This document shows, one piece after another, positions 5,262 through 60,110 of a stretch of DNA of 64,000 bases; the stretch's first letter is position 1; every line of letters starts with the position of its first letter. Under the pieces are notes generated by a model. The model saw only the letters and a program-made list of their open reading frames with translations, was not told the origin of the DNA and did no database searches. The stretch is from the NCBI GenBank assembly GCA_036785375.1, contig JAWMAR010000008.1, positions 12,276,001-12,340,000 of the forward strand, read 5' to 3'. Origin of the DNA: Leucoraja ocellata. Taxonomy: Eukaryota. The position numbers and the translations under genes were made by a program.

Positions 5262-5365
5262 CTCCAGTCTGAAGAAGGGTCGCAACCTGAAACATCATCT
5301 ATCTATTCCTGCAAAAGAAGATGCCTGGCCTGCTGAAATTCTCCAGCATTGTTTTTTGTTCTTTT
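5262..5365 (+). mobile_element. PLE-derived short repeat with degenerate hammerhead-like core
   Basis: ctgaagaagggtcgcaacctgaaacatc...gatgcctggcctgctgaaattctccagca, homologous to the copy at 6326 and to the end of the GIY-YIG element at 59824. Confidence 0.7.
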
Positions 5366-5747
5366 CATTCCTTTATTTCTACCCTGCTGCTGTCAGCTGC
5401 CAACACCTCCCTTATGAATTATTGGTTGCCCGCAACCTAGCTACTGGGGCATCCATCACTCTCTACTTGGGGAGCTTTCTTGTGGAGGAGCCCGTTGATA
5501 TGTTACAAACGGAAACCTACCTTGTGGCTATGAGCTACAGTCTCACATCTTTGTCTCCTCTTTGGGATGCCTGTTTTGCTATGAGTCTTTTTCAAACATT
5601 CTCATAGCTAAGTCTCACTGTCTGTTCCGGAGTGTATTTCTTCACTCTTTCTCACCATAACCATCCTCATCATTCTGCCTGCCTCATTACTGAAACCATC
5701 TGCCTCAACCTATACATCGTGATTCTCTCCCATTCTTAAAGTTCCTG

Positions 5748-6052
5748 TTTAGCTTAGTTTAGTTTAATTTTAGTTTGGTTTAAAAATACAGCCCAGAAAC
5801 AGGCCATTCAGCCCACCAAGTCCACGCCGCCCAGCAATCCCCACACACTAACACTATCCTACACACTAGGGACAATTTACAATTTTACCAACCCAATTAA
5901 CCTACTAACCCGTTCATCTTTGGTGTATGTGAGAATACCAGAGATCCCAGAGAAAATCCACGCAGGTCGTGCTAGTGCAAGCACCCGTAGTCAGGATTGA
6001 ACCTGGGTCTTTGACGCTGTAAGGCAGCAACTCCACCGCTGCATCACCCTGC
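5748..6052 (-). mobile_element. tRNA-derived SINE (elasmobranch HE1/V-SINE-like) with CR1-like tail
   Basis: Reverse complement begins ggtgatgcagcggtggagttgctgccttacagcg...ggttcaatcc (A/B boxes); tail is gtttag repeats on +. Homologous copies elsewhere in the window. Confidence 0.8.
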
Positions 6053-6325
6053 CACTCTGTTCATCCTTAACTTCACCTCTGCTTCCACAACTACTCCTTC
6101 TGTCTTCAAGCTTGCATGACCCATTCAGCTTTTACATGTACTTGAGCATAAAGTCACCCGTGCCTGCTATGCTACAGTATTCTTTACATCCTCTCTGAGT
6201 CCCAGCTTCCCATCCTCTGTGGCCAATATGCCCCTGCTGAATAGGTCCCTGACTGCAGTTTTTCTCTCTGGATTGAGTTTGCTCAAGGTGACAGTACAAC
6301 AATTCAAGATTGGCTCTATGATAGA

Positions 6326-6353
6326 CTGAAGAAGGGTCTCGACCCGAAACGTC
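6326..6353 (+). ncRNA. Minimal type I hammerhead ribozyme-like motif inside a PLE-derived repeat (repeat spans about 6324-6455)
   Basis: CTGAAGA-A-GGGTC-TC-GACCC-GAAA-CGTC: both conserved core boxes, a stem II, palindromic ACGT in place of helix III, and a GUC cleavage triplet. Helix I is poor. Confidence 0.65.
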
Positions 6354-8399
6354 GCCTATTCCTTCTCTCCATAGATGCCGCCTCACCCGCTGAGTTTCTT
6401 CAGCATTTTTTGTCTACCTTCGATTTTTCCAGCTTCTGCAGTTCTTTCTTAAACAAAGATTGGACCTTAGTCAGTTCTCCAGAGCAGATTGGATAATCTG
6501 AACCACCTGGAAAGATTGACTCAGAATGCAGATGATCATTGATGAGACCTAATGGTACAGACCTTCTGTGGGAAATTCCTACAAACTGTGCAGTTACTGC
6601 ATCTGTATTAGCTATTGCCAAGAAATACCGAAGCTCTGTGGATTTGTGCTAATGTGGTTTGTCCCTGTGTATATGATGTGTTGCATTCTATATTGGGCAA
6701 AGTGGAACTCTCCTTGTGTGAAGTTCACAGTAATTTAGTTCAGATGTTAATAAATATGGGGAATGGTTTCTGTGAATCAGACATCCAGCTGACTACAAAA
6801 AGATTAATCTATCATATGAGCTGGCATGATTTGGCAACTTCTACTGTTCCCTAATAATTCCGCTTCCATCAGCAATGTAAACCCCTTCGTAATGTGTGCA
6901 GTTTTTTGCACACTCTAAATTAATGTATAATTTTGCCCAATGAGTTGACCTTTGTTCCAAGCCGTTATAGTAGTGGCTAACTATGGAAAGTGCAGTGGAG
7001 GGGTGACGGAACCTGCGTATGCTGGGTGGGATTTGAAGATGCCCTTGGGACAGTAGGACTGCTCTGGATTTGGGTGCACTGTTAAATGATCAATATTCAT
7101 CATTACCTCTGAGTGTTTTGGTCACCCTCCTCTTGAACATCCTTGTTCTGATCAGAAATGATGCATTGAAGTGTTGACAGTAGAATCTGTGAGCACAAAG
7201 GACCACCTTCATACAATCTTTATGGTGGTGAACATTAAAGCACAAAGTTAAAATAGCGATTCAGTGGATTTAAGCCCTGAGTACTTCACTCTGGTGTGAA
7301 GGAACCCAGTGGCTTAACTGAACCGTCACCAGGGGTTAAAGCAGTGATTCTTGGAATACCATGTTTCCTATCCAACTGAACATAGAACAGTATGGCACAG
7401 GAACTGGCCCTTCGGCCCACAATGTCTGTGCTGAAAATTATGTCAAATAATTACCCATTCAAGATTCTTACTTTTAGCCATTGACGGCCTTAACATCTGC
7501 TTTCTGAAAATTCAGACACATGCCTGACAACCCCCTAACCCCCTATTCCACCTTTCTCCTCAAATTCAACCTTAAAGTTATCAGTTTCACTCTCTGAAGA
7601 TGCTACCTCACCAGCTGTTTCCAGCATTTTCCGTTTTCATTTCAAATTTCCAGTACTGCAGTTTTTGTTTATTTTCATCTACTCCAAAATGTTGGTCTTA
7701 TTCTCTATCTCCTGAAACAATGCCTTGAAAGGGTTTGAAGTTTGTCCATTCATTTTAACTTTATTGAAGATTAGAATCATCCAGGTAATTCTGAACTGGC
7801 TGACTGGGCAGGATCAGGCACAGCCTCAGCTTTACCTGTATTGCTCTACATCATCACCTGTTAACCTGGCTGTCTGTCGATAGAGCCTTGCTCCTGATCT
7901 CATTGGTTTGAATTAAAGTTGATCACCGTCTTTTCCATTTTATATGGCTTGTATCTTCTCCCCATCGTCCAGGCTACTTGCACCTGTAAGCAGCTAACTC
8001 AGGTCTCAGTTAATGGTACGGAAAAATAGATGTGGCGAGACTGAAGACAGAACCCAGTGTTTCTGATTCACCTGCCCATCTTAATGGCTCCCAACAAGAA
8101 CTGGAAACACAGCATTCCCCAACATGACCCCACCCCCTCCATCTGCAGCCTTTTAATTCTTGCGCAGAATCTGTAGAGATTTGCTTCAACCCTGGCCTGT
8201 TCCAGCACTACTCTTTCTAAGCCACATGCGATCTCAGTCTTTGCTCAATTTGATAATGACAGGTGTGATTTCAGCTTTCCCCGTGGCCATTAAGAACTCT
8301 ACATTTATAACAACTTGAATCATATAAAATCGCTCCAAAACATGTGACTCTTGTACACTGTCTCGGTGTACTATTCCTATGCACTTGTACTTAACTAAG

Positions 8400-8789: not shown

Positions 8790-8812
8790 GGGGGGGGGGG
8801 GGGGGGGGGGGG
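8790..8812. repeat. Poly-G tract
   Basis: Run of about 23 G. Confidence 0.9.
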
Positions 8813-12357: not shown

Positions 12358-12680
12358 TAGAAACAAGGAATTGCAGGTGCTGATTTGCAAAAAAAAGATA
12401 TAAAGTGCTGGAGTAACTCAGCGGGTCAGGCAGCATCTCTGGAGAATGGGAGTCTCTGGAGAATGGGAGGAATGCATTTCGTTGTCTCTGTACTGTACAC
12501 TGACAATGACAATTAAAATTGAATCTGAATCTGAATCTGAATCTGAGTAGGTGACGTTTTGGGTCAGAACCCTTCTCCAGGCTGTTTGTGGGGGGAAGAA
12601 AGCTGGAAGAGAGGAAAGGCAGAACAAAGCCTGGCAAATAATAGTCATATACAGATGATGGGAGGGGAGGATGATAGGCA
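12358..12680 (-). mobile_element. PLE-derived repeat interrupted by a nested non-LTR 3' end with (GAATCT)n tail (12471-12546)
   Basis: ctggagtaactcagcgggtcaggcagcatctctggag...gtgacgttttgggtcagaacccttc flanks aatgcatttcgttgtctctgtactgtacactgacaatgacaattaaaatt(gaatct)4. Confidence 0.75.
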
Positions 12681-12960: not shown

Positions 12961-14249
12961 CCTACAGATGCTGGAAATCCACAATAAAATCTGAAAATGC
13001 TGGACCACATCTGTGGGAGGTGAGACTGAGGCAAAGTTTCAGGTTGAAGACCCTTCATTAGAGATTTTGTTTTTCTTCCCTAAAATGAAGCCTAACCCTC
13101 TTGAGTATTTCAATCATTTTCTGCTTTTATTGTAGATTTCTAGCATCTGTGGGGAGAATTTGGGCTGTGCATATAGTGTCAGCTAAAATGGAGTCACCTA
13201 CGTTCTGTGTCTAGCAATAGCAACAAACCTCAACCCTTGTCCGTGCAAGAAGTCACAACAGTTATTTAGGCGTCTTCAGTCAATGTGCGAAGTTCAGGTG
13301 ACAGCATTAAGTTGTTTTTCGACTGGGAAAGTTATTTATAATTAAATTCCTTTTTGTTTTGTGGTCTTTTGCTAAAAATAAATAAAGCAAAGGAAGAGAC
13401 GGCTGAATCTAGGATTAGATGGGAAATGCACACCAGTTCAACGAGTTTGAATTGAATTAGGGGGTCACGTCCAGTTAAGGATGTGAGTAAGCCAATCCCT
13501 GAATAAAAGCACAGAGGATGGGGCAGGGAGGCCATGCTCAGAATAATGGGTGGTAGTTGCAAGCTCCCCCCTTTTCCTCATCAGTGTTTCCTTTCCAATG
13601 GCAATTGTGACCTGCATCTGGCCTGGAGGCGTACATCGATAGGATCAAAAACAGGTGGTCACAGCTCCAGTGAGAGGAGAGAGAGAGGAAGAAAGTTTCA
13701 AGTTTAGCTGACACCCTCCATAACCTCTGGAGGGTTTCTGTGTGGGCATTCTGCCAGTAAAGCTTTATGAAGCACAGAGCAACCCCAAGAGGAGCTTCCA
13801 CAGACTCTTCATATACAAACACAAATAAATCTCCCCGGCTTGTGAACCCTGCAGCTCCGTATAAATCAGTTGAAAGCTGGAGTTCACTTCCACCAGCCGC
13901 TGTGTGCGACTTGGCACACCTTCCCCTTGGCCTTGCTGTGTGCATCCTGTGTCCTGCGCACCACACGGTGCAGACTGCTAATGGGACGTGACAAACTGCA
14001 CAACAGTCTTTTGGCTGCCAGACTGCGATGGGGTGAAGCTGAGAAAATGGGTGGGCAGCAACTCAGAAGTCTGACTGCTTTGTGACATTTCCACTGCTGC
14101 CTTTGACGTTTCACCCTTTCCTTGCTGGAGATCGTGTCCGTCCTGTCTCCATAAAAGTGACTGCAGCGTCAGAAACCTTCCCCGCTCTAACTCCAGTTTG
14201 TCCTCCAGTGCAACACAAAGGTTTCAGACGACAATGGTGAAACATTAAA

Positions 14250-14668: not shown

Positions 14669-15039
14669 GATGTACCAGTGGAGCTGTTTCCCTTCACTTA
14701 AATGGACCAATTTCAAAATAGAAAGTTGACACATTTGACAGGGTTGATCTGACCTTACAGTGAGATGGTCATTCTCTGTATTTGGTATGCAGAGAACCCA
14801 TCAAGAGAAAAGTCAGCATTCAACAAACATGGGGCATCACCCACTATCCACCACCGGCTGCAAAATAGCACAGAGAGCATCCAATGAAAATGAGTACAGC
14901 TCTAACAGCGGTTCAGGAAACTTCTCCTAAAAGATAATTAAATAAACAGCCACACTACAATGGCCGCATCTTTAAATAACCCATTACCCTGACAGTGCCT
15001 TCAATTCCACCTAGATCAAACAATGGCTAAAATTTTGGA
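14669..15039 (+). repeat. Left arm of 371-bp inverted repeat
   Basis: Reverse complement of 15761-16131 with about 7 substitutions and no indels by manual comparison. Confidence 0.97.
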
Positions 15040-15479: not shown

Positions 15480-15764
15480 CAAATGGGTGACCTCTTATTG
15501 TTAAACAGCGACCAAAGTGCTAGATACTCACACAAGAGGAAACATCCTCTCCACATCCACCCGCTCAAAACCCCACAGAATCCTCTACTAATCAAGTTCC
15601 CTCTCAGCCTTCTAAACTCCAGCAGATACAAGTCTGGCCTGTCCAATCTTTGCTTATAACACAGCCTGCCCTGTCATATATTAATTCAGTTAACATTTTC
15701 TGAATGTTTCTAACATGTTAACATTCACCCTTACACAAGGAGACCAACACCTAACAGTACTCCA
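15480..15764 (-). mobile_element. Old CR1 fragment in the spacer of the inverted repeat
   Basis: ctctcagccttctaaactccagcagatacaagtctggcctgtccaatct...accaacacctaacagtactcca is typical antisense CR1 ORF2. Confidence 0.7.
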
Positions 15765-16131
15765 AAATTTTAGCCATTGTTTGATCTAGGTGGAATTGAA
15801 GGCACTGTCAGGGTAATGGGTTATTTAAAGTTGCGGCCATTGTATTGTGGCTGTCTATTTAATTATCTTTTAGGAGAAGTTTTCTGAACCCCTGTCAGAG
15901 CTGTACTCATTTTCATTGGATGCTCTCTGTGCTATTTTGCAGCCGGTGGTGGATAGTGGGTGATGCCCCATGTTTGTTGAACGCTGACTTTTCTCTTGAT
16001 GGGTTCTCTGCATACCAAATACAGAGAATGACCATCTCACTGTAAGGTCAGATCAACCCTGTCAAATGTGTCAACTTTCTATTTTGAAATTGGTCCATTT
16101 AAGTGAAGGGAAACAGCTCCACTGGTACATC
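15761..16131 (-). repeat. Right arm of 371-bp inverted repeat
   Basis: tccaaaattttagccattg...gctccactggtacatc is the reverse complement of 14669-15039. Confidence 0.97.
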
Positions 16132-20050: not shown

Positions 20051-20369
20051 TAAGATCTTCACAGTAGTTTAGCTGCTCTAGATATTTAATTGTGCCTTTA
20101 TATTAAATGTCAGAATATTTGTGGTGCCAAATCTGATCATGGTTTTGACAGATTAGCCCATAAATCAAGAGGCAAAAAATTGAAGTGAATTAAGGCTGTG
20201 TTGCTGGAGAATTTTGTATCTTTATGTTAGAAGTTAATCCTGTGCAACTGCCTCAGTCATGGTTTATGAGCATGCAAGAGACACTGGAAGCCCAGAGTCA
20301 TTGATACAGAGTTAATTGACATCAGTTTTAAAACTGTCATGTCCCAAAAACAGGAATGAAATTCACATG

Positions 20370-20492
20370 GATATGTGACGTTTCGCGTCAGGAGCCTTCT
20401 TCAGACTGAATTCTTTAGCGTTGCCTGACTCACTGAGTTACTCAAGCACTTTGTATCTTTTTGAAAACCAGCATCTGCAGTGCATTGTGTCT
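20370..20492. mobile_element. PLE-derived repeat: minus-strand core fused to plus-strand tail
   Basis: gtgacgtttcgcgtcaggagccttcttcagactg followed by gcctgactcactgagttactcaagcactttg...ccagcatctgcag. Confidence 0.65.
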
Positions 20493-22474: not shown

Positions 22475-23090
22475 AGTATAGGAGCAGGGAGGTTCTACTG
22501 CAGTTGTACAGGGTCTTGGTGAGACCACACCTGGAGTATTGCGTACAGTTTTGGTCTCCAAATCTGAGGAAGGACATTATTGCCATAGAGGGAGCGCAGA
22601 GACGGTTCACCAGACTGATTCCTGGGATGTCAGGACTGTCTTATGAAGAAAGACTGGATAGACTTAGTTTATACTCTCTAGAATTTAGAAGATTGAGTGG
22701 GGATCTTATAGAAACTTACAAAATTCTTAAGGGGTTGGACAGGCTAGATGCAGGAAGATTGTTCCCGATGTTGGGGAAGTCCAGGACAAGGGGTCACAGC
22801 TTAAGGATAAGGGGGAAATCCTTTAAAACCGAGATGAGAAGAACTTTTTTCACACAGAGAGTGGTGAATCTCTGGAACTCTCTGCCACAGAGGATAGTTG
22901 AGGCCAGTTCATTGGCTATATTTAAGAGGGAGTTAGATGTGGCCCTTGTGGCTAAGGGGATCAGGGACTATGGAGAGAAGGCAGGTACGGGATACTGAGT
23001 TGGATGATCAGCCATGATCATATTGAATGGCGGTGCAGGCTCGAAGGGCCGAATGGCCTACTCCTGCACCTAATTTCTATGTTTCTATGT
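22475..23090 (+). mobile_element. Young CR1-type LINE 3' fragment with uninterrupted ORF2 C-terminus, nested in an older CR1 remnant
   Basis: ORF 22504-22998 LVRPHLEYCVQFWSPNLRKDI...FFTQRVVNLWNSLP has no stops; tail tttctatgtttctatgt. Confidence 0.95.
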
Positions 23091-24436
23091 CTTCAATGCT
23101 TAAGCAACTCGGGTGATCATCTGGAGTCCTCTTAAATGCTGTTAGTGACTCTGCTTACACCACTCTCCCAACCAATGTATCCCAGATACTCACCATACTG
23201 GATAAAAAAGGTCTCCAGTAGATCCCTTCTGAATCTCTTCCCTCGTCGCCGAGACTGCTCTTTTGTTATTCAGCTCTGAGAAGAAGAAAGGAAAATTGCA
23301 TAGAACATGTAACTTTTGATTAAGTATTGTTTGAATTGTCACCTGTGTTGGAAAATTGTGATCCCAGTTTGTGACAAACTGGGAAGCAAGGTTTTTGGGA
23401 AGGAAGTGCACACCTGGAATTTCAATAAATAATTATAAAAGGAAATAGAAAACCTGAATTTGTGGCATCTCCAGTTGAACCTTTACAGTAGAACAAATGG
23501 ACACAAGTTCGCAAGAGGTGATTTAGACAGTTTGTCACCGCAATGAACATAGGGTACATACTGTAAATCAGAGAGCCCATGCCTGAGGATTAGTTGAAGT
23601 TGTGATGGAGAGCTGTGTGCGTCTCGTGATGATTATATAATTTGCTGGGCTGTGCAGCATGTCTGTTCAATTTTGTGAGGTAAGTCTTCAGCAGTCAAAC
23701 GGTTTCCATCCATTCAGCTGACGGGGCAGTTGCTGGCACTGAGGGATGACTGATTATCCCTGCAGCTGTTATGCCTCTGGATATTTGCTCTTTGTTCACA
23801 GATTATTACCAAAACCTCTGGTTCAATCTAAATCGTAAAAATTTCCTGCTTCGCTTGTCTGAAAATCACACGCAGGGGTAATGGAGTAAAACATCCATGT
23901 GCAGGGCAAGCAGTGCTCAGGGCAATTACGCAGCAGAGTTGACAGGCCTCTGCTTGCAGGGATTCTCTGTAGGAAAGAGAGCGTGTCACTGCAGGGAGCA
24001 GACATGTCCTCGGACAGAGCACTCCATGGGATCCCAACTCCGGGTCTAGGATTGAGAGAGGATTCATGGTCTGAATCCAGAACCAAAGGAATTCTTGCTT
24101 GGGCACAGAGTAACAGATTGGTGCCATAAACCCAGTGCATAATTTTAAATGGTTGTTTCGAGATACTGAACTGAACAACTCAAGATATTAATGGAGCCAA
24201 CCTCATGTAACAGGACACAAATTTTTTACACTCCCTTGATAATTGCATGTAATAATCTCATCAATAATCGCTGGCAGTGATGCCTTATCAATACCGTTAA
24301 TCCCACCATTGACGATCTATACATTCCCAATTGGTTCTTCCAAACGCTACACTTTGTCTCAGAAAATCTGCAGGTCAGTTTTTTAGAAGAAAGATTATTC
24401 CAATGTGATCCTTATTTTTATTTCTTTCCCTCACAG

Positions 24437-24590
24437 GCTCTATTAGAAGATCAGACTTTGAAGAGACAGATCGAGATTGAGATAACACCTGTCTTTCTTG
24501 TGCCAGACACCAATGGATTTATTGATCACCTCCCCGGTCTGGTCAAACTGCTGGAGACCAGACTGTACATCATCGTGGTCCCACTTATTG
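24437..24590 (+). CDS. SMG6: SMG6 coding exon: start of PIN domain (ALLEDQTLKRQIEIEITPVFLVPDTNGFIDHLPGLVKLLETRLYIIVVPLI)
   Basis: Polypyrimidine tract tttttatttctttccctcacag, donor G|gtaaac. Contains PIN motif FLVPDTNGFIDHL with the first catalytic Asp. 154 nt, ends in phase 1. Confidence 0.96.
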
Positions 24591-39002: not shown

Positions 39003-39198
39003 TAGGAAAGAACTGCAGATGCTGGTATACACCGAAGATATACACAAAATGCGAGAGTAACTCAGCGGGACAGACGGCATCTCTGGATAGAAATGGGCAA
39101 CGTTTCAGTCTGAAGAAGGGCCTCGACCCGAAACGTCACCCATTCCTTCTATCCAGAGTTGCTGCCTGTCCCGCTGAGTTACTCATTTTATGTCTACA
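39003..39198. mobile_element. Palindromic PLE-derived repeat with hammerhead-like core at 39110-39137 (+)
   Basis: gagtaactcagcgggacag..gcatctctggatagaaatggg-aacgtttc mirrors gaaacgtcacccattccttctatccagag-tgctgcctgtcccgctgagttactc. Core CTGAAGAAGGGCCTCGACCCGAAACGTC. Confidence 0.85.
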
Positions 39199-41479
39199 GT
39201 TCTATGTACAGTACGGGCACCTGTCTCAAGAGTTGTAGAATTAATGGAAACCAGCATGGATGCTTATTAACAGCTTCCTTTTCATGATTAAAGGAGACAA
39301 TTCATAGTGGAAGCAAATCTTGAATTAGTTGAAAGTAAGATAAGATGTTATAATAAAAGGAAACAATTGCCTTCTCTAAAGAATAGCAGAATGCCTGATT
39401 GGAAATTCAGGAGGCTCTCAAATTTTATTTCATAGAATTTCCTTGCACTCACAAAATACAGGAACAGTTCATCTCAACCGTGCAGGTGTTTTTACATTCC
39501 AAGAGTTGCCTCATCTCTGACTTTCAAAGGTTTTTCTGTTCCAACTTCCTTCTCTCCCTGGTGGACCTGTTCCTTTTGAAATCCTCTAAGTTGAACCAAG
39601 CTCCATGTCCCATTACTTCCCTATTGGATTCTGTGTTTATGTCCTGCAGTTGTGGTTTCTCTGCCGACCCCCACATCTGCCCTGTTAGAAGATCTCTATC
39701 AGGTTGCTTGTCATTCATCTCTTCAGCCGGAAAAATCCCCACTGCTTGGTCTTCCCTGAAACCCCTAGTCACACTTTGATAAAATCCTCTCAAACGTGTC
39801 TTGTCTTTTTCCTGTGTATCTCTCACCTTTTTTTTAATCAGAAGACCAGTACTGTGCATTGTTACCTGACTAGGTGAAATATTGATATACTTATCATAAT
39901 TTCAGTCCATTTGAATTTCATGTTCGATATCCCAATACCTTGTCCATATTTCAGTCCACCAGCTGACCTGCAGTAATGATTTTATTGATCCGTTTGCTGT
40001 ACCATGGGTTTTTCTTTTCACGAATTTCCTGTCAAAATCCATCAACATAATCAATACTGTGCGGTTCAATTTCCTAAAAGTGAGTTTAAGCCTCTTCTCG
40101 TGTGCTGCATTCTTCCTCAATGTTGGCTTCATCACCTGCCTCTTGCTCAAATTCCCAACCATGGGTTGCAAAATTGATTATCTAGCTTTCAAATCTAAAT
40201 CATTCACTTGGACTGCGAAAATAATCTCCCTGGAACATCACTTTCTAATTTACAGCAATTTGAATAACTACCTGTCAATTCAGTTTTAACTAATTCTCGA
40301 TCCTTTCACTTGTAAAACCATATTTAGCGGTAGGCTGTATATTGCAGTGGTACATTTGCTCGAACGGTCAGTGTTTACCTTAATCGCTTAAGGCTCCTGT
40401 GGGCTATCTCTGTGTGATTCCATTGGATATTGCACTAACTGTGATATGTGCAAGCCACAAAAATTGAAAATTTAAGTCCCAGGAGAAGTGTTTAATGTAT
40501 TCTATATCAGGTTGGTATTTGTTTTTGGAAAAGCTGACTGGAAGGAATAAATGCTTCATCTTAACTCCCACCCACCCTCCTTCAAGTAACCGACCCCAGT
40601 ACTTCCACCAGTCCTTTCAGAAAACTGCCAGTATTTCTGAGAGTTGCTGTTCCAGTTTTCTCTCTTTATCGAGTTATTATTTTAGCTGGTTTTATTTAAA
40701 GAGAGGACTAGGCGATTACTCCTCAACAGCTGAACTGTTTTTCTTTTGAATTAAAATCCAAGAATACTATATATTTTAAACTCTCTTTCTACTTTCAGGG
40801 ACACCCCTGAAGATGGAATCTGATTCTCATTTTATGTCTGATTCTTGGTCGGTTATCAAAGTGCCTTGGAGAACCTAAGTGAACATGTGGTGTCCGCTCA
40901 ATGAGGCTGCTGGACTTTGACCAATAAAGAGTACTTCAAAGTGTGACAGAATACCTGTTTAGTGTTCCATTTTGATCTGGCTCTAATCTGACATTGACAA
41001 AGGCCAGTCTAATTCCCTGCAAACAATGTGCCATTTTTGTAAAGTACTGCCCTTGCCCTAAATCTTCAGATCATACTTTTAACAAATTGTTCACCTGTTT
41101 CAGATTAGTGCAGACAGCTAAATGGATTCAATCAAGGCACTGCAACAGGTGCCTGCCTCCCCGTCTGCCTCACTTCAGTACAAACCCAAATTAAATTGAT
41201 GGGAGAGTTTTAAACATTTTCCCTCATGGTACATCGACAATTAATGTTCAAATTATATGATATCACAGAATCTGGAGATTTAAATTGTTCCCTCGAGGAG
41301 TGTACTGATCCAAGCTGCAGTCACTTTGTTTGCCATCCTGAATATCCATTAATATTATACGATACGTTATTCAGCGAGGATCAATCGAGACATACAGCAC
41401 AGAAACAGGCTCCTCGGCCCACCTTATCCGTACTAATCTTCACCCATACCAATCCCATTTCCCAGTCCGGCAGCATATG

Positions 41480-42790: not shown

Positions 42791-44112
42791 CACATGCTGC
42801 CTCTGCCTGTCTAATTGCAGTCTTTTAATATAATTATATTTTTGATGACCAACTGTGTATGTGTGTTGGGAAGTGGGTAAATACTTTGGATTGCAAAAGA
42901 GGATGATTGGCATCAGTTGGAACATTCCCAGAATATCGTGGAAATAAGGATTCCGGGAGAAAAGCTGGGAATTTCTATGCTAACTTTTGCAAGCTGTGAA
43001 AGTCCTCTTTTGGTAGGTGTCAGTTCTAGTTTTGTTTCTGCAGACCACGCTATAATTCCAGGTAATAGCCATTTTGGAGGAAGTGTCACAAGTAATAGAG
43101 GTGTGCATGATGCATTGCCCCTTATCTATAGCACAGTTTTTATTGACGCACTATTACATGTGGCTGTTGTTTTTCCATATCCGGAGGGAACTGTGGCCGT
43201 CGTGTTGGTTGCCTGGGGTCTCTAGTCTAGGTGGGACTTCACAGCAAACATATTTTGTCAGCATTTTATTGTTACAGAGGGATTTCCTGCATGAAGTAAA
43301 TAGTGTGTTGGGCCTGACCACTTGGGGTCGTGGTTCTTCTCAAGAAGGCACAACGATGCCACTTTTTTGTATTGGTGCCTTTCAGATGTTGCTCCACTTT
43401 CTAAGCTTTCCTCTCTGCTTTGAAATCAATTTCACTCAGGTTTTCACCATGATGATGTGGGAATGATATAAGCAACGAGATGCCTGACAAGAGTATGTGG
43501 ATTGACTGCAGACTGGATGGGCAAACTCTCTGTCGTCTTTGACTCGCAGTTGGTGCTGGTTAACCTTGAGTCCTGATAATCCACTTGTGTTGCACTGACT
43601 CCGGGAGTTGCAGTAAAATGATTCAAAAACATAGCAGTCAATTCAGAATCTGAAAGAAAGTGAATGTGTTGTGGTCTGGTGTAGGACCTTTGAAAGTTCT
43701 GATAGTGTCTCATCTGTCAACGGGTAGTGCTTTGCTCCTTCACTCACGGATTCACTGGCAGATTGTTTTTTTGAACCTCAGTGGGTTTGGCATTGCAATG
43801 ATTAATTCATTCAACGGGCTAGGCTGACAGGATCAGCAAGAGCTTCCGTACCCAAGCAACATCTTGCTGCAGTCCTGTGGCTGAAGTTCAGAAATACTTG
43901 GGTGAATTCAGCAGGGTCACTTCACTGGGTACTACACTTCTGCATACACTTGTGTCGGGTAGTTTATAACTATATATATTCTGGGAAGATTTCACTGTGT
44001 CTGTGTAGTCTCACACTAGAAATGTTAATATAGTGAAATTTTGGATTATTTCCTGCCCTTTCAAATACTGGATGTAGAATTGACAGACTATCTGTGCTGT
44101 TTAATGTTTCAG

Positions 44113-44324
44113 TGATTAATGAGTTGGATGGTCTGGCTAAAGGCCAAGACACAGACTACCACGGTGCAAACCATGCCAAATTGGTGCAGGAGAGAGCCAA
44201 GAAAGCCATTGACTTCCTGGAACAAAGGTTTGAATCTCGGGACTCGTGCCTGAGGGCTCTAACCAGCAGAGGTAACGAGCTGGAGTCAATTGCGTTCAGG
44301 AGCGAAGACACGACAGGACAACAG
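44113..44324 (+). CDS. SMG6: SMG6 coding exon: central PIN domain (VINELDGLAKG...RFESRDSCLRALTSRGNELESIAFRSEDTTGQQ)
   Basis: Acceptor tgtttcag, donor CAG|gtaact. G+TG rebuilds Val across the phase-1 intron. Peptide closely matches vertebrate SMG6. 212 nt. Confidence 0.97.
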
Positions 44325-44337
44325 GTAACTGACACAA

Positions 44338-44386
44338 CCCTCCCCTTCCCCCCCCCTCCCCTCCTCCCCCCCCCCCCCCCACCACC
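44338..44386. repeat. Poly-C / C-rich tract directly after the exon donor
   Basis: ccctccccttccccccccctcccctcctccccccccccccccccaccacc. Confidence 0.9.
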
Positions 44387-45864
44387 TTCTCTCTTGTCAC
44401 CAACTTGTAACCTGGTGATCCACACCAACTTGACCCACTCAAGGAGTTGAGCATTTCAGGGAAGCCAAAGCTTCAGTGCATCACTGAGAGAACAATGTAT
44501 GACCATAAGATAGAGGCATCGATCCAGCTTCATGTACTGCTTGTTCTGATGGGTGTAAAATATGCCATTGGTGCTCTTCAAAGAAAGCCTGTAACCTGGA
44601 GAACATTCCCACCTCTCCAAATACAATCAAAAATAGATCTACAGATCTGTTGCTTTATTTATGTGTTTCTGTCCACAGTTTGCCTTATATAGTGCTGTAC
44701 AAAAGATCCTGACTTCAGCAACTCATATTCCACAGTGCATTTAAAATTGAATTCATGAAGTATGGTCTTTTGTGACCAGGTTTCTGGATTATCATGAAGA
44801 CCAAACCAGTCCCCTAATGTCCTGTAACCTCTCATTGCTTTACACAAGCTCTTACACAGTCAAATGGCTTATTCAGTCAAGCATGTTTGCCCAGGGTGAA
44901 CAAAATTAGCTTGTCTCCAAGTCTCTTGTACGGTGTGGTCAGCTACAACATCTAAAATGTGGCATATCCAGTTCCTGTAACTATGCAAGGCCACACAGTC
45001 GGGCTTGAGGCTGAATCCATAAGGGTTTGATGCTTTGCTAAGCTCACTCCATATCCCTTCAGGAATAGTCTGAGCACTGAAGGTTTCGGGCTTCAAGTCA
45101 TGTCTTCTGTGATAAATATTGTCCATTTTTTGGTTGCATGGGAAGGAGCAGACAGGCTGTTCAATATCTCATGAAATCTGAAGCTCTTATTCATATCTAC
45201 ACAGCTGCCTTTTTGTGTGAGTAGTTTCAGAGTTTCCTTGTTGGTACTGGCTCTATCCGAGTATTTTTTCCCCCTCTGATGCCCTCGGAGCCTGCATGAT
45301 CAAGTCTAGAGCAATGTGATCCAGAAGTTTTGCCCTCTAGGCACAAGATAAATTACTTTACTTAAAAAAAAAAGTTGTGTTTTTTGTCACTTTATGAATT
45401 TCTGTTCATCAAGATCTGGGAGGTGGCAGTGCTAGGGGTTTGATGAATTGCTTAATCCTGTTCTGCAACTATGTCCCAGCCTGCAGCAGGTATGAACGGG
45501 TTTTGTAAAAACAGCTTCAGAGAGACTTTGAAAAGCAATTGTCCTAATTTCATTCTTCAAAGGAAAATCACTGGACGTTCAGTTATTCAAAGCCCACTTT
45601 CATCTGTCAGTGTTCTTTAAACAACGTACACTTTCATAGGCAGACTCGGGAAACACTTCCCTCCGATGGGAGAATCTAAGCCAAGAGGTACAATCCTAAA
45701 ATTGTGGCCAGGCCATTTGGGAATAAAATGGAAGCACTAATTCAAAGGATATTAAAATCTGGTCTCTTGCCTTGAAGCTGGTGGATGCTGGGGTCATTAC
45801 CAAGGCACATTAAGATGTTTGAGACCAATGCTGAAGTACAAGGTACAAGGGAGTGATTGTAAGA

Positions 45865-46145
45865 AACAAACCACTGGAGGTGCTCAGCGATTTAGGCACT
45901 ATCTGTGAAGGCAAAGGAATGATATACATTTCAGCTTGAAAACCTGCAACAGGACAGAGAGTGGAGAGGGAAGATAGTATACAGGGGTGACTGGCTGTCT
46001 TCCATGTACACTCTCAGTTTAGATGCAAGGTCTCAATCAAAAAAGTCAGCCATCCCTCTGCCTCCACAGATGTTGTCCGACCCGCTATGTTCCCCCAGCA
46101 GTTTATTTTTTCTTCCAGATGCCAAGATTTGTAGTGCCTTGTGTC
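45865..46145. mobile_element. Degenerate head-to-head PLE-derived repeats
   Basis: ccactggaggtgctcagcg..ggcactatctgtgaagg...catttcag followed by gatgcaaggtctcaatcaaaaaagtc...cctccacagatgttgtccgacccgct. Confidence 0.55.
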
Positions 46146-47373
46146 ACTAGGAGTAATTGATCTGGTAGGACTGGAGCAAACAGTGGAATAATCGGCATGA
46201 AATGCTTTCTTAAACATAGCATTACTTTCCAGGACATGTCCTAGTAGTCTGACAATGAGCCACAGAACAGACCACCAAAAGCTCGGCCCAAGTGATGGGT
46301 TTAGAGGAGAAGCAGGTATGTAACCAAGGTGGGTAGGGGGATGGGATGGAAATCCCACAATTTAGCCTCAAAAACAGAAGGCATGGCAGGCAATGAAAGA
46401 ACACTTAAGTTCAAGGAGATCAAGAGACCAGGAGGAATAATCATCCACGGGGTTGTGGGGCAAGAAATTGGAACCAGTGAGACTGAGACTCTGGTTTGAT
46501 GCAGGAAATCTCAGCCTTGGCTTCAAATCTCTTCAGAGTCTCACCCTCACTAGTGCTTGATAGTACTTGCACTGTTTGGTTCGATGCAAGAAAGCTCAGC
46601 CTTGGCTTCCAATCGCTTCAAACAGTGGAAGTACTATCAAGCAAGGAATACCACAGAGCAATAAGAAGAATGCCCCTGGCTGACCTCCTGTTGCAGCCAG
46701 TGCAGATTCACCAGCTCTCAGCAAGCGGTGAGTGAATCAAAACAAACACAAAGTGTTGAAGGAACTCAGTGAGTCAGGCACAATCTGTGGATGGATGGAT
46801 GGACAGACAATGTTTTGGGTCATACAAGTGACAAAGTTGTCTCAAAAACGCAACCAAGGGCTGAACTCTCAAAATCTTGTCCCGCAGCAGAAAGGAGCTT
46901 GACCCTGAGCCTTCTCAACTCTGCGCTGTGTGGTCATCCCCTTAATATGAGAGTGAGTCAAATCGTTTGAGACACCCAGCACAGAGAAGCATCATCCCTA
47001 CATCTATCCTGTCAATCCTCACTAAATTATTTTAGATTTCAATTAGCTGACATCTCATTTTTTAAACTACAGAGAGCATAGGCAAAGTCTGCCTCTGCAC
47101 TGGAGGAAGCTCCAAACCAGGTATCAGACGGCATAAACCAATCGAAACTCAAGTCACTTGTCCACTGTTGTGTCCTTTGAGTATCTCTGGGCCACTTATG
47201 GGTGTTGTGTAAGGAAACCATGAGCCAATTTGCACACAGGGATTTCTCTGCAGGAAGCACACAGCACTGGCTGGGCCAGCTTTACTGACCGTTCCTCACG
47301 GACCCTGAACTGAGTAGCTTGTAGAGGGCAGGTTACAGTCAACAACTTTGCTGAGGGTCTGGAGTCACATATA

Positions 47374-48585: not shown

Positions 48586-48720
48586 GGGTCTGAAGAAGAA
48601 TCCCAACCCAAAACGTCACCTATCCAGGTTCTCCAGAAATGCGGCCTGACCTGCTAAGTTACTCCAGCACTTTATGTATTTTTTTTGTAAACCAGCATCT
48701 ACAGTCCCCTGTGTCTACAA
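48586..48720 (+). mobile_element. PLE-derived repeat with mutated core
   Basis: gtctgaagaagaatcccaacccaaaacgtcacctatccagg...cctgacctgctaagttactccagcac. Confidence 0.75.
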
Positions 48721-51795: not shown

Positions 51796-52479
51796 GAAGG
51801 ATTATCTATGTATTTCCTAGTTAGAGGGCAGCTAACAAGTAAGGCTGTTTCCATCTGTCCTGTTCTTCCAAATGAAAGAGGGCATGGGTTTGGGAAAAGC
51901 TGCCAGAGGATCTTTCCTGACTTAATTTAATGCCTGAGAGACAGTACACACTGCAGGCACAGTGGACGGACTGATTTACGTTTAAGAAGATAGACACAAA
52001 ATACCGGAGTAACTCCGCAGGTCAGGCAGTGTCTGGCGAAAAGGAGTAGGTAATGTTTTGGGCCGAGACCCTTGAATCGGTATCAGTTTAGTAGGGTGCT
52101 TTGTTTTGAATGTTGGTGAGCCTCCTGAGCCCTGATGGGTGTACCTTTGTCCTGGGCGAGTGGAGAGTATTCCATCACATTTGTTTCTGCCCAGTAATAA
52201 CAGAAAAGCTTTGAGGCGAGTCATTCACTGCAGGATTTCTAATCTCTGACCTGCCCCTGTAGTATAATATTGGTCTGGTTAAGTGGGTGGTTACAATCAT
52301 AACATAATTATGGTTTAGAACAAAGCAGTTTGGCCCTTCAATTCCATGCTGGCCCTGTGGAGTCCATGGCATTCTTTTGTTGAAGATGATCGGCACTTAA
52401 CAGTTGAATCTTCGAAAGTCAGCTCTCTTTTCTACATTTGAACTAAGCATGTGAAGTCTGAACTTGAGTGGTCATGGCA

Positions 52480-53839: not shown

Positions 53840-56030
53840 AACGGCACAGCACTGGGTTAAGCCTGTCGGCCCACGATGTCTGTGCCAATAATGATGCTAA
53901 ATGATTTCCACCTGCCTGCAAATGACCTGTATCCCTCCATTTGGTGCCTATTCATGTGCCTATCTAATTGTCTCTTTCATGTTGCTATCATATCTGCTTC
54001 CACCACCTCCCCTGGCATGGCACCGCATTCCAGCACCTACCACTGTCTGTGTAAACCTTCTTTAAGCTTTCCCACCCTCAAATTAAATCTATGCCCTCTA
54101 GTGTTTGACATTTCCACCCTGGGAACAAGACTTGTGATATTTACCTTATCTATGCCTCTCATATTTGTATATACTACCATTAGGTCACCCCTAAGTCTTG
54201 GACACTCCATAGAAAACAATCCAAGTTTATCCAACCCCTCCTTATAACTAATACTCTCTAATGCAGACAACGTCATGGTAAACCTCTTTTGGGCCATCTC
54301 CAAAGCCTCCACATCTTTCCTGAACACACAATACTTAAAATGTGGCCAAACCAAAGTTTAATGCAGCTGCAATATGACTTGCCAAATGTTACACTCAGTG
54401 CCCCAAGTGATGAAGGCAAATATGTCGTATGCCCTATTTATCACTCTTATTTGTGTTGCTATGTTCAAAGAGCTGTGGACCTTCAATCCAAGATCGTTCT
54501 GTACATTGATATTCCTCAGTGTTTTACCATTGCTCTTACATTTGTCCTCCCAAAGTGCCACACCTCACACTTGTTTGAATTAAGCTGCCATTTCTCTGCT
54601 CACATTTCCAATTGATATAAATCCTGCTTGTATCTTTTGAAAACCTTGCTCGCTATCCACAACTCCATGAATTTTTGTGTTGACTGCAAACTTAATTAGT
54701 TCACCTACATTTTTGGCCAAATCATTTATATCAGTACAACTGATATATCTATAGATATATCTCTATATCACATACAACAGTGATTCCTGCAGAGCACCAC
54801 TGGTCACAGACTTGCAGTCAAAACAACACTCCTCCATCATCACCCTCTGACATCTATGGCCAAATCAATTTTTAAACTAATCTACCAGGATCCCATGCAA
54901 TTTAATCTTGTGGATCAGCCTACTACAGGGGTCCTTGTCAAATGCTTTACTAAAGACCATATATGTAACATCCACTGACTACTCTGATCAGTCATCTTCG
55001 TCACCTCCTCAAAAAACCTAATCAAGTTTTAGAGACATGACTACTCTAAAGAAGCCATACTGATTGTCCCTAATAAGTCCCTGCTTTTGCAGATGTGAGT
55101 AAATCATACCGCTAAGAATCTTCCCCAATAATTTCCAGACCACTAACATAAGGCTCACCAGCCTATAATTGCACTTAAACAAAGGAAGAATATTTGGTAT
55201 TCTCAATCCTTTGGGTTAAAGAGGATACGAAGATCTCTGCCATCTGGGGATTTATCCATCTTAATGTTCTTCAAAGAACCCAACAGCATCTCTTTCCTGA
55301 TATAAATATGCCCCAGAATATCATCAGCAAAAAAAGAGAGCAGCTGTAGGAAGTCAGCAGTCAGCCAGACCCTGTTGAAGGAAATGGACAGTCAATGTTT
55401 CAGGTCGAGAGATCCTTGATCTAGGAGAGCAACGGTGCGGGCCAAAGAATTGGAAGTTGTTGAAATGGTGGAGAGCATGCAAGGTGCCCCACATGTGGGT
55501 GGAAAGGAACTGGACTATGGGGGGACAAGAAAGTGTCAAGGTATGAGGAGATGAGCTCAGTGAGATAAGAGCAGGCAGACACAGGGGGACATACCAGATA
55601 GTCCTGCTTATGAATCTTGGGTAGGAGATAGAAACAAGCGGTGTGGTTTTTCCCCACAGTCTAGATGAAGTCACTAACAGTCTGGGTGAAGGGCCTCAAC
55701 CTGAAATATAGACTGTCCATTTCCTTCTGCAGATATTTCCTGATCTACTGAGTTCCTCCAGTTTCTCTTTTTGTGTTGGCTACAGATTCCAGCATCTGTA
55801 GTCTCTTGTGCCTCCTAGAATGTTGGCATAACCCTCCTTAATCTCATCATCCTTTCCTTCTCCTGGGTTAGTACTAATGCCAAGTGCTCATTCATTACCT
55901 CGCCCACTTTCTCTGGCTCCAGGCACACATTCCTTCCTTTGTCCTTGAGTGGTCCTATGGATGTATTAAATGCTAAGATTCTCCTTAATCCTACTTGCCG
56001 AGGACACTTCATGGTCTCATTTAGCCCTCC
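53840..56030 (-). mobile_element. Long CR1-type LINE fragment interrupted by a PLE insertion (about 55330-55812)
   Basis: Antisense ORFs PHFKYCV..RKDVEALEMAQKRFT, NYRLVSLMLVVWKLLGKIL, SIGPLKDKGRNVCLEPEKVGEVMNEHLA. Confidence 0.88.
55330..55812 (-). mobile_element. Penelope-like element fragment (RT N-terminal region) between inverted terminal repeats
   Basis: ORF 55421-55657 TACFYLLPKIHKQD...VSACSYLTELISSYLDTFLSP carries the PLE RT LPKIHK motif. Plus-strand terminal repeat at 55678-55812. Confidence 0.8.
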
Positions 56031-57071: not shown

Positions 57072-57356
57072 TATAGAAACATAGAAAATAGGTACAGGAG
57101 GAGGCCATTCGGCCCTTCGAGCCAGCACCGCCATTCATTGTGATCATGGCTGATCGTCCCCAATCAATAACCCGTGCCTGCCTTCTCCCCATATCCCTTG
57201 ATTCCATTAGCCCCTAGAGCTCTATCTAACTCTCTCTTAAATCCATCCAGTAATTTGGCCTCCACTGCCCTCTGTGGCAGGGAATTCCACAAATTCACAA
57301 CTCTCTGGGTGAAAAAGTTTTTCTCACCTCAGTCTTAAATGGCCTCCCCTTTATTC
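57072..57356 (-). mobile_element. Young CR1 3' fragment
   Basis: Highly similar to 2638-2925; tail tagaaacatagaaaatagg on +. Confidence 0.92.
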
Positions 57357-57439
57357 AAAGGGGAGGCCATTGTTACATTGTTTGATGAGCAAAGGTGGTC
57401 TTGCACTTTGCCCAGTCCATGCGGCAGCTGCGGTGGTGG

Positions 57440-57932
57440 TCTCAGCCAGAGTATTGCACACAGTTCTGGTCACCATGCCATAGGAAGGAAGTGATGGTGG
57501 AGATGTTGCCTGGGATGGAGCAGTTCAATTACGAGGAGAGAGTGGAGAGGCTGGGTCTATTCTCCCTGGAGCGGAGGAGGTGAAGAGAGAACAGATTAGA
57601 GGTATATAAAATACGAGAATAACTAGGGTACATGGCAGGAAACGGGTTTCCACATAAAATTAGAAGACATGGAGTTTGAGTAAGGGGGAAGAGATGTGGA
57701 GGGATCTGAGGGATGTATTCTTAATGCAGTGTGGCAAGTACCTGAATACCTGCGAGAGTGATGGATAGCGTTGCTGACAGCATTTAAGAAGTGTGTGAAT
57801 GGCACTTGAATCGCCTTGGCATTGAGGGCTGTGAACCAAGAGCTGAATAATAGGATTAATGTGGACGGGTGATCACTGATCAGCGTGGACACTGGGCTGA
57901 AGGGCCTGTCTCAATGCTGTACAATTCTATGA
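57440..57932 (+). mobile_element. Older CR1 fragment
   Basis: PEYCTQFWSPCHRKE...YEERVERLGLFSLERRR; 3' UTR gggctgaagggcctgtctcaatgctgtacaattctatgac. Confidence 0.8.
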
Positions 57933-59139
57933 CGCTGTAGGTGTCGTGAGAATAACAATAGCTGTTCAGGTCCTTGCTTGCACAGAACCCAGGCAATGCA
58001 AGAATTCTTCAGAAATTCCTGCAAGCCTCAAGGGCACAGGGAAAAGACAGAGCTGCCAAAGAGGTTTGCGGGCCACCCACTGCCAGCTGCAGGCTCCTTT
58101 GACAGGAACTAGAACAGAACAACCCACCGAGATGTGCAAATGCACACCAGCCTCTCCTCAGTGACTGAACACAGAGATGCTGCTAAATACGGGCTATTTT
58201 ATTCTCTGTTCTATTTAATGATTTCTTATTGCTGAACTCTGAGGCTGCAGTCATCACAAGGTGAGGTCATGTATATGTTTGTGACCTTTTATGAACTATG
58301 AGTAAATGATGTCACCGAGACATTAGTTTCATTGGAATCCAATTACGTAAAACATCAAGAGTCTAGGGCTCGGGACATTAATGCAGTAACATCCATGAAT
58401 CCATCATGGCCCTCCCATGTGGGTGATGGCTGGCCTTTGCTTCATACTCCTGGCACCATCAATGTGCAGGGAATGGGTATAAACTTGTAACCAACCCTGT
58501 AGGTTAAATGTGTAACCTACTCAGAGCTGCATGAGGCTTCTGTCTTATCAGGTCTCCTGGATACATTGTCAACACAGCGACACACGTTACTAGCGTTCAG
58601 TCATGTTGCCAACTTCTGGAGTTTCAATCCCCCCCCCCCCCCTAATATTCCTCCCCATCAACCTAACTTCAGGGAACAGAGTAAACCATCCAGTGTTTCC
58701 TCCTGATCTCCAGCTGGTGACTCCTGTCAGATGCTGTGTGGGGGCAGGAATGGCTGAAACGGAGGTTACCCTCATTGTGTGCCTGGTCCGCTCATGTGTG
58801 TACGTGATTTTGATTAGAAAGTCTGTGACTTACATTATTTATGCAAAGCCAGTGAGACATTCTAGAGCCAAATGTAGATTTGCTAACATAGTTACGGCAC
58901 CCTCCACACTCCCGGCACATCCAAAAGTGTTTATGGTGATGGAGTGTTTGCAAGATTTAGTCTCTGTTGATCTGTCCATGACCTCACCATACTGAGTAAA
59001 GGGTGTCCCTTTGGAGTGGGATATCCTGGACCCACAGCGCATCCAAGCATCAACACACCTGCAAGTGGGAACTTGCTTGTTTTTGAGCTTTCACTCCCAT
59101 TTTCCACTTTTCGTTCACTCTAGTTGTATACAGTAATGA

Positions 59140-60110
59140 AAGCAAAAATGCTGCAGCACTCAGAACGTTAGGCAGCATCTGGGGAAAGAAAAACAGCTAA
59201 TGATACTCTACTCCCATTTCCTCCCCTGTCTGCCCTCCGCAGAGACCGCTCCCTCCGTAACTCCCTGGTCAATTCGTCCCTTCCCACCCGTACCACCCCC
59301 TCTCCAGGCACTTTCCCTTGCAACCGCAGGAAATGCTACCCTTGTTGCTTTACCTCCCCCCTTGACTCCATTCAAGGACCCAAGCAGCCGTTCCAGGTGC
59401 GACAGAGGTTCACCTGCACCTCCTCTAACCTCATCTATTGCATCCGCTGCTCTGGATGTCAGCTGCTCTACATCGGTGAGACCAAGCGACCTTGGCGATC
59501 GCTTCGCCGAACACCTCCGCTCAGTTCGCAATCACCAACCTGATCTCCCGGTGGCTCAGCACTTCAACTCCCCCTCGCATTCCGAATCCGATCTTTCTGT
59601 CCTGGGCCTCCTCCACGGCCAGAGTGAGGACCACCGGAAATTGGAGGAGCAGCACCTCATATTTCACTTGGGCAGTTTGTACCCCAGCGATATGAACATT
59701 GACTTCATTTCAGGTAGACCCAACTGTCTCCTCCCCTTCTCAGTTCTCCCTCAGCCCTCTGGCTCCTCCTCTTCCCGCTCCACTGCCCGCCCCTCCTCAC
59801 CCCACCCCCACCCTCACATCCTTCTGAAGAAGGGTTTTGACCCGAAACGTTGCCTATTTCCTTCGCTCCATAGATGCTGCTGCACCCGCTGAGTTTCTCC
59901 AGCATTTTTGTCTATCAAATGAGACTCTACCCCGTTCTTTGCCTGTCCATTATCCATGTCCTCACCCACCACTGGCGTTAGCTGCTGAACTCCCAGTGTT
60001 TGAGATTAAGCTGATCTCTCTGAAGAAGGGTCTCAACCCGAAACATCGCCCATTCCTGCTCTCCAGAGATGCTGCCCATCCCGCTAAGTTACGCCAGCTT
60101 TTTGTGCCTA
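59140..60110 (+). mobile_element. Penelope-like retroelement 3' part: GIY-YIG endonuclease remnant plus tandem terminal repeats, preceded by an inverted terminal piece
   Basis: Frameshifted translation RRDRSLRNSLV...GTFPCNRRKC...FTCTSSNLIYCIRCSGCQLLYIGETKR..LGDRFAEHLRSVR...PVAQHFN...RKLEEQHLIFHLGSLYPSDMNIDF. Terminal repeats at 59824 and 60020; antisense terminal piece at 59140-59200. Confidence 0.92.
59824..59851 (+). ncRNA. Minimal hammerhead-like motif in PLE terminal repeat (a second, mutated copy lies at 60020-60047)
   Basis: CTGAAGA-A-GGGTT-TT-GACCC-GAAA-CGTT directly downstream of the GIY-YIG coding remnant. Confidence 0.6.

Follow-up and report, generated by a model that had tools for sequence, protein, structure and literature searches.

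Short hammerhead-bearing repeats in the SMG6 introns of Leucoraja ocellata as probable pseudo-LTR insertions of Penelope-like elements

The window, a stretch of 64,000 nucleotides of the Leucoraja ocellata genome (GCA_036785375.1, contig JAWMAR010000008.1, forward-strand positions 12,276,001 to 12,340,000), carries the host gene SMG6/EST1A together with a short repeat, every copy of which is intronic. Twenty-eight copies, 15 on the plus and 13 on the minus strand, were detected with a profile derived from 10 of them, presenting a density of 1 per 2.3 kb; the reversed window used as control gave no match better than E 0.96. In window coordinates the features are:

1221-63371, plus: host gene SMG6/EST1A, exons at about 1221-1376, 24434-24589, 44112-44342, 60909-60990 and 63244-63371
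5265-5364, plus: pseudo-LTR (pLTR) unit without tail, pyrimidine-rich upstream remnant
6323-6453, plus: tailed pLTR unit, intact core and ACGT, target duplication of 8 nt
7575-7664, plus: decayed unit without core
12362-12583, minus: single tailed unit, split by an insertion of about 97 nt (two hits)
12962-13062, minus: old diverged unit
20366-20490: head-to-head pair, 20366-20409 (minus) and 20420-20490 (plus)
27725-27823, plus: untailed solo unit, target duplication of 14 nt that stops 2 nt short of the core
28222-28392: head-to-head pair, 28222-28282 (minus) and 28284-28392 (plus), cores intact in both
29107-29212, minus: unit without tail, pyrimidine-rich upstream remnant
29937-30035, plus: solo unit without tail
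31751-31984: head-to-head pair, tail on one arm
38543-38645, plus: old diverged unit
39001-39201: head-to-head pair (minus arm 39001-39111), 5'-truncated arm tailed, intact-core arm untailed
45859-46143: old head-to-head pair, UTR-like spacer, tail on one arm
46738-46822, minus: unit truncated within helix II
48586-48714, plus: solo unit with tail
51985-52073, minus: unit truncated just within the core
55333-55420, minus: old diverged unit
55685-55809, plus: old diverged unit with tail
59128-59199, minus: old unit without core, adjoining the GIY-YIG fragment on its left
59212-59821, plus: 5'-truncated Penelope-like element (PLE), frameshifted coding end with Cys-linker and GIY-YIG, followed by a pyrimidine-rich 3' UTR
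59822-59922, plus: 3' pLTR unit of the PLE at 59212, core and ACGT intact, without tail
60019-60124, plus: additional unit, probably a separate insertion

The window-wide family of short repeats described in an earlier note on this DNA is confirmed: a copy was present at all 21 positions given there, and in 21 of the 28 hits the first aligned model position lies within 1-9, which puts their start at CTGAAGA or immediately upstream of it, in agreement with its description of non-random 5' ends near the core. Missing from its list were the copies at 7575 (plus), 20420 (plus), 38543 (plus), 39001-39111 (minus), 46738 (minus) and 59128 (minus), as well as the five head-to-head pairs, which comprise 10 of the 28 hits. 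The copy placed near 12555 is real and consists of two hits (12362-12447 and 12544-12583) of one interrupted unit. A GIY-YIG element proposed for 59200-60110 does end in the unit, at 59822-59922; it does not seem to extend to 60110, since the unit at 60019 follows after a gap of 97 nt with different sequence variants and is probably separate. A second-round profile, applied to a 664-kb sample, recovered the 28 window copies and 231 further copies in 40 other 10-kb stretches, with 0 matches in the reversed sample. The unit makes up about 5% of the sampled DNA, and at least 89,519 exact matches of its 28-nt core occur in the genome.

The repeat is the 95-135-base hammerhead-bearing pLTR of an RT + GIY-YIG PLE of about 3.9 kb. 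The PLE derivation proposed earlier holds: in a long element, L071, the same unit stands at both ends, and L090 is a partial tandem running from the GIY-YIG end through UTR and unit to the ORF start. The pLTR arrangement was recognized via such partial tandems, direct or inverted (L071, L090 and inverted 5' units). Broken copies read as one ORF coding for RT and, at the C-terminus, GIY-YIG, the probable start codon lying about 165 nt after the core. Homologues of the protein carry RVT_1 and GIY-YIG at 52-68% identity; the element's own GIY-YIG match is weak (E 0.0046). The GIY-YIG domain is preceded by a Cys linker, C-x4-C-x2-C, of the type CX2-5CxxC which PMC8557442 describes between RT and EN as the rule in Neptune and Nematis PLEs. 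As far as its sequence tells, the parent is of a known kind, an EN+ PLE, very abundant, in a cartilaginous fish.

Among the best matches, 60 overlapping rows collapsed into about nine independent copies with the ORF start, a set biased towards top hits. Four of these continue upstream as tandems, five have their start in the unit or beyond it (model 14, 21, 48, 92 and past 134), and 0 of the approximately nine listed begin at the core. Likewise, 0 ORF-start segments were found among 38 ORF-side segments in the 664 kb with 320 units. Both counts speak against the view that the solo pLTRs, like solo LTRs, were left when the terminal units of longer elements recombined, which requires long copies starting at the core. 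Recombination would keep the target duplication and produce unit-length copies, and L071 has the unit at both ends; it cannot, however, yield the head-to-head pairs with a single tail presented below, and we regard it as highly improbable.

A minimal-hammerhead pattern matched 47 times in 794 kb and once in the reversed sequence, which bears out the hammerhead motif noticed earlier in the repeats; Rfam had no match at E<=1, and the hammerhead reading is based on the motif. Core boxes, helix II, a UH cleavage triplet and the palindromic 15.1-16.1 segment of the minimal type I hammerhead are present. Helix I does not reach the 4-5 bp of the minimal type I definition: two pairs are formed in 84-89% of the copies and the third in 10%, and 26 of the 47 pattern matches have 2 bp. 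The boxes are kept in 69 of 157 core-covering copies, 36 of which also keep ACGT, and the helix II columns pair in 75-90%. Covariation was not detected in helix I, its lengths being equal to those of shuffled partners, nor was extra conservation of the catalytic bases (retained at 0.93 versus 0.91 in other fixed columns). Folding of five stretches gave no significant z-score and the hammerhead was not the minimum-energy form, an outcome expected for a minimal motif and thus uninformative. On the motif evidence, the repeats bear a minimal type I hammerhead, a putative ribozyme. Metazoan PLE hammerheads of this type (Cervera and De la Pena 2014, PMC4209133) share the CUGANGA and GAAA boxes, the bulged base before helix II, the palindromic ACGU and the pLTR location, and the one of D. 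virilis shares the 2-bp helix I. They, too, mostly occur singly and in association with truncated PLEs, with neighbours on the opposite strand. The skate unit differs in its helix II of 4-5 bp and in a far higher copy number, the exact core matches given above standing against about 4,000 in coelacanth and 9,000 in Xenopus obtained by another method. In the available text of PMC4209133, cartilaginous fish are not among the hosts named.

The unit ends were analysed on 320 hits in 664 kb, including 184 unpaired copies. The core was reached by 107 unpaired copies: 73 stop within a few bases of it, a count possibly inflated by old subfamilies with unrecognised UTRs, 23 continue into a shared UTR with scattered upstream extents (36 to 300+ nt), 10 were ambiguous and 1 had an N flank. 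The 5' ends are thus tied to the core rather than random, as the earlier note held; in local alignments to a profile that begins 5 nt before the core they scatter over about -4 to 0, not a single base. The 3' ends fall into two groups about 30 nt apart, at model 94-107 (112 of 320) and model 128-137 (123 of 320), the longer one being the known PLE 'tail'. Target duplications of 9+ nt flank 15 of 83 solos, compared with 1.2% for shuffled flanks; from the other 68 age may have erased them. Fifteen of 23 duplications of 8+ nt end at most 4 nt from the core. TCAG with a pyrimidine tract lies just before the core in all UTR-linked subfamilies, and in 27 UTR-linked copies its letters are retained at 92% (T), 100% (C), 88% (A) and 88% (G). 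An initiator-like motif, TCAGTCT, is present in 23 of these 27. Copying of the element may begin and terminate at these sharp ends. In contigs of four runs presumed to be RNA from other organisms, which cannot show RNA ends, loose ends coincide with the borders of the unit.

A pyrimidine tract followed by CAG is also the form of a 3' splice site, and the stubs could then derive from spliced RNA. The upstream context of all UTR-linked subfamilies and a donor-like site about 100 nt upstream fit such a boundary, and an intron of the D. virilis Penelope ends at helix I (PMC4209133). The predicted spliced junction, for the one donor tested, occurs 0 times in the genome, versus 3,336 occurrences of the unspliced donor side, and the target duplications directly adjoin the core, without an intervening piece of exon. 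No splice-type joint was among the 15 of 30 joints listed from the contigs of the four runs. Splicing as the source of the stubs is very improbable.

One hundred and twenty of the 320 hits are arranged head-to-head and 8 tail-to-tail. Only one arm is tailed in 39 of 50 scored pairs (24.75 expected, p 5e-5), the two arms have subfamily letters in common at 0.79 versus 0.52, and duplications of 9+ nt flank 14 of 60 pairs versus 1.9%. Exact palindromic junctions number 3,832 in the genome (control 1). The more-truncated arm was the tailed one in 18 pairs and the untailed one in 7, with 14 equal (p 0.04), so that a snap-back from the tailed arm fits poorly and was rejected.

The earlier note had proposed a separate non-autonomous family resembling retrozymes or SINEs. 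Such a family would spread by transcription and self-cleavage of the short unit and its re-insertion by PLE proteins. Self-propagation would suit the very high copy number, the sharp ends and the units' own target duplications, and two variants at profile positions 37-48 recur among solo or paired copies and are absent from the 8 commonest of 22 UTR-linked copies; 10.64898/2026.07.22.740005 argues that animal retrozymes descend from PLEs. Nevertheless, sequence variants are common to solo, paired and UTR-linked copies, and 27 of 65 solos had a UTR-linked copy as their nearest neighbour; given this intermixing, a SINE with own master lineages is not supported. Both cores were intact in only 3 of 26 same-strand neighbour relations in the 664 kb, arrays of three or more intact cores were absent from it, and a 66-nt array in L089 is without the CUGA box. 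A start at the base following the cleavage site was seen in one of the 184 unpaired copies, and an end at the site itself in one of the 320 hits. A retrozyme is not supported, given this lack of intact-core arrays and DNA ends off the cleavage site, and the near-equal retention of catalytic and other fixed bases likewise tells against one. The SMG6 introns, a single gene of low power, showed no strand bias in copies (51 sense, 52 antisense), intact cores (13 and 9) or acceptor-like copies (3 and 6); the sense depletion of intact cores, suggested as a sign of activity, is thus absent. We regard a self-propagating family as very unlikely. Known non-LTR retrozymes (PMC7229834, 10.64898/2026.07.22.740005) are similarly short, non-coding and PLE-related with a type I hammerhead, but form tandem repeats with a hammerhead per unit and circular RNAs, whereas the skate copies are dispersed or head-to-head, minimal instead of canonical and bounded at the core front. 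Searched for one-strand A-to-G scars, the 320 hits gave a single paired copy whose 4 A>G stand beside other changes, which is unconvincing. Any dimers formed in cis within the SMG6 pre-mRNA would be unlikely to be of consequence because only 4 sense window copies keep core and ACGT, at spacings of 11-22 kb, and helix I has 2 bp.

The unit at both ends of a long element, the solo duplications, the two 3' end groups, the 5' ends at the core and the one-tailed head-to-head pairs are best explained by the hammerhead-bearing pLTR of several RT + GIY-YIG PLE subfamilies, probably left as minimal dead-end insertions by the element's own enzyme. By analogy with an anole PLE in vitro (PMC11167929), the enzyme would nick DNA and start reverse transcription inside the RNA, at a site lying either about 95-100 or about 130 nt beyond the core, with the cDNA ending where the ribozyme begins; head-to-head pairs would arise when both target strands act as primers, each at a different one of the two sites. 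The stubs would not be copied again, since they would be without everything 3' of the priming sites, a region needed by the anole enzyme. The putative ribozyme would at most contribute a protein-helped dimer cleavage in the parent RNA (for hammerhead dimer cleavage see Lunse et al., as cited in PMC6765202). The anole element, Anolis Poseidon PAc (Frangieh 2024, PMC11167929), likewise has its 3' ends at two points past the hammerhead, and both target strands are cut and extended, which fits the paired skate insertions; insertion occurred without need for cleavage, and no RNA ends are reported at the cut site. PAc belongs to the Poseidon clade and has its ORF start in stem II, in contrast to the skate element with its probable start codon farther downstream. 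The spread of the 5' ends and the 68 solos without a 9+-nt duplication stand against the dead-end insertion reading, as does the derivation of its priming steps from a Poseidon-clade element.

The cDNA may stop at the core because the RNA begins there, at the initiator-like TCAGTCT, a cause that we give a nearly even chance. Stalling or capture of the RT at the TCAG-T-CTGA near-palindrome or helix I is possible and to be taken with more doubt; another cause is unlikely. Only tentatively, the about two million stubs might be strong-stop-like run-off cDNAs, with a transcript start at an initiator overlapping helix I, two internal 5'-leader priming sites and both-strand cDNAs joined via the TCAG-T-CTGA palindrome. 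If so, the genome would serve as an extensive natural archive of the unresolved PLE integration step. A run-off from the transcription start also predicts long copies starting at the core, absent among the ORF-start copies listed.

All of the structural traits (pLTR inversion, tails, duplications and the hammerhead at PLE ends) are already published, and the element is ordinary. EN+ PLE insertion units (PMC3846280, PMC8557442) have the same partial tandems, inverted head-to-head pLTRs, palindromic junctions, one-arm tails of 30-40 bp and short target duplications; in the skate this architecture is mostly reduced to the pLTR alone, in numbers that permit end statistics. A search of literature listings found no paper on such stubs in cartilaginous fishes, and 10.64898/2026.07.22.740005, with one chondrichthyan genome, may list the family. 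The value of the finding is modest and concerns repeat-library labelling and tests of PLE integration. Since it occupies such a share of the sampled DNA, the unit may be mislabelled as SINE or unclassified in shark and ray repeat libraries. The regular ends and the one-sided tail of most pairs fit the two-site, two-strand priming of the anole PLE in vitro and would offer cheap tests of PLE integration.

With a first profile, built from 10 window copies of the hammerhead-bearing unit, 28 copies were detected in the window, 15 on the plus and 13 on the minus strand, and no match was found in the reversed window. Each position listed in the earlier note held a copy; six further matches had been overlooked and one listed copy consisted of two split matches. 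Similarity had been described as starting near the core, and 21 of the 28 matches indeed begin at CTGAAGA or just before. A second-round profile yielded 320 matches in 664 kb and 0 in reversed sequence. Of the 320 matches, the window contributed 28, the flanks (200 kb) 61 and a set of 40 hand-picked 10-kb stretches from large contigs 231. At least one match was present in 38 of the 40 stretches, and 5.4 % of these 400 kb was unit sequence, which extrapolates to about two million matches over 3.44 Gb. An exact 28-nt degenerate core pattern occurred 89,519 times in the genome (control 0). The window is slightly below average, therefore nothing about the unit is special to this locus.

The window spans the 3' portion of SMG6/EST1A (plus strand), with nearest proteins from cartilaginous fishes, and all its unit copies are intronic. 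A 27-nt minisatellite (62562-63235) stops just ahead of the last SMG6 coding exon. Past the 3' end of the window, at about 12,380,700-12,464,700 of the contig (G000:C8), lies an inverted second SMG6 5' part (residues 1 to ~950) with ~99 % identity across >80 kb, which either arose by recent segmental duplication or is an artefact of the assembly. A 371-nt inverted repeat (14669-15039 and 15761-16131, 98 % complementary, 721 nt between) resembles a young DNA transposon or MITE. A second abundant family of 120-460 nt on both strands (2640, 4626, 22479-23107, 37015, 48953, 57073, 61067) presumably represents CR1/L2-type LINE ends.

The origin of the unit was traced from one fragment in the window:

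59212-59821, frameshifted GIY-YIG ORF end and pyrimidine-rich UTR, followed by the unit

Relatives of this fragment are 90-93 % alike, and a 26-nt piece of the ORF end has 3,336 exact genome matches. Walking upstream led to an element of ~3.9 kb, whose homologues contain both RVT_1 and GIY-YIG. One locus (L071) carries the unit at both element ends, another (L090), a partial tandem, passes from a GIY-YIG end and its UTR across the unit to the ORF start; therefore the unit is the pseudo-LTR of a Penelope-like element (PLE). By the sequence rule in PMC8557442, its C-x4-C-x2-C linker suggests the Neptune/Nematis type. Adjoining a near full-length PLE, locus L089 holds a tandem array of about eight 66-nt unit pieces (3361-3917 in element orientation, model positions 27-92) lacking the CUGA box. 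Two partial-tandem PLE loci, one surrounded by a TG microsatellite, were multiplied with their flanks across many small contigs (L146-L205), by either segmental or satellite-like spread.

The 3' ends are bimodal, at model positions 94-107 (112 of 320) and 128-137 (123 of 320). This matches the 30-40-bp PLE tail that PMC11167929 ascribes to two internal reverse-transcription starts; the stubs, copies reduced to the unit, would likewise be primed at two internal sites. Flanking target duplications of at least 9 nt are present in 15 of 83 solo copies (shuffled flanks 1.2 %). Among 184 unpaired copies with full 3' end, 77 are cut within the unit and 107 extend to the core, where 73 stop; 23 run on into UTR that also occurs at other loci, and the rest have a flank that is pyrimidine-rich and ambiguous (10) or N (1). 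In 57 unique-flank copies the bases at -1 to -4 match the element in 87, 71, 50 and 47 %, with background beyond, and copies reaching further upstream end at scattered extents (36 to >300 nt). The cDNA would end at the front of the ribozyme. The hammerhead cleavage site as copy end was not borne out in the 184 unpaired copies: one begins just after it, and the 18 starts in the surrounding bin scatter over ten positions. A splice-acceptor origin of the 5' boundary found no support. If the 5' hotspot stemmed from the initiator-like TCAGTCT, stubs would be run-off copies of an RNA leader. This region fits the initiator consensus in 23 of 27 UTR-linked copies, and run-off would account for the excess of stubs, since the ORF start is absent from all 38 ORF-side segments of the 664 kb; however, none of ~9 independent ORF-start copies (from 60 rows, most being duplicates of two loci) starts at the core. 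Stalling or junction capture at the front of the core stays a close rival, because the hotspot bases also make helix I and a near-palindrome.

Head-to-head pairs contributed 120 of the 320 matches, tail-to-tail pairs 8. The ~30-nt 3' tail could be scored in 50 of 60 head-to-head pairs: 39 had one tailed arm (24.75 expected, p 5e-5), 8 none and 3 both. A duplication of 9+ nt common to both sides was found in 14 of 60 pairs, and arms agreed at subfamily-variable columns by 0.79 versus 0.52, although the partner ranked within the top 5 % of matches in only 15 of 46 cases. In six of 60 pairs the arms meet precisely at the midpoint of TCAG-T-CTGA, a junction with 3,832 genome occurrences. Each pair therefore represents one insertion event. 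Structures of this kind are on record in PMC3846280, and the self-priming on an antisense template put forward there may also produce the present pairs.

In its features the motif corresponds to the minimal type I hammerhead of PMC4209133 and is by sequence a putative ribozyme. Helix II is paired in 75-90 % of copies, helix I has 2 bp. Boxes are intact in 69 of 157 core-covering copies, boxes plus ACGT in 36; CpG columns are decayed, and in these copies the catalytic bases had no extra conservation over other fixed columns. At ~2100-2130 of stretch L020, a 30-nt near-palindromic insert is flanked by two copies of an 8-nt core piece. Intronic strand bias, proposed as a sign of activity, was not seen in the SMG6 introns (293 kb; 51 sense, 52 antisense copies). 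Intact cores (13 sense, 9 antisense) and cores with ACGT (7 and 3) likewise gave no hint that sense ribozymes are selected against in this one gene with its small numbers. An anole PLE hammerhead cleaved only with protein and was dispensable for insertion, according to PMC11167929.

Retrozymes consist of tandem units with a hammerhead in every unit, as given in PMC7229834 and 10.64898/2026.07.22.740005, whereas here two intact cores occurred in 3 of 26 same-strand neighbour relations, and among these no longer array. The commonest sequence variants are common to solo, paired and UTR-linked copies, and for 27 of 65 solos the nearest neighbour is a UTR-linked copy. The retrozyme reading of the earlier note is therefore not supported; a minor solo-only lineage, beyond the reach of this sample, may exist. 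Our literature search found no report of such stubs for cartilaginous fishes; all structural traits of the unit are already published for PLEs of other animals. The repeat is real, abundant and a known kind of element.
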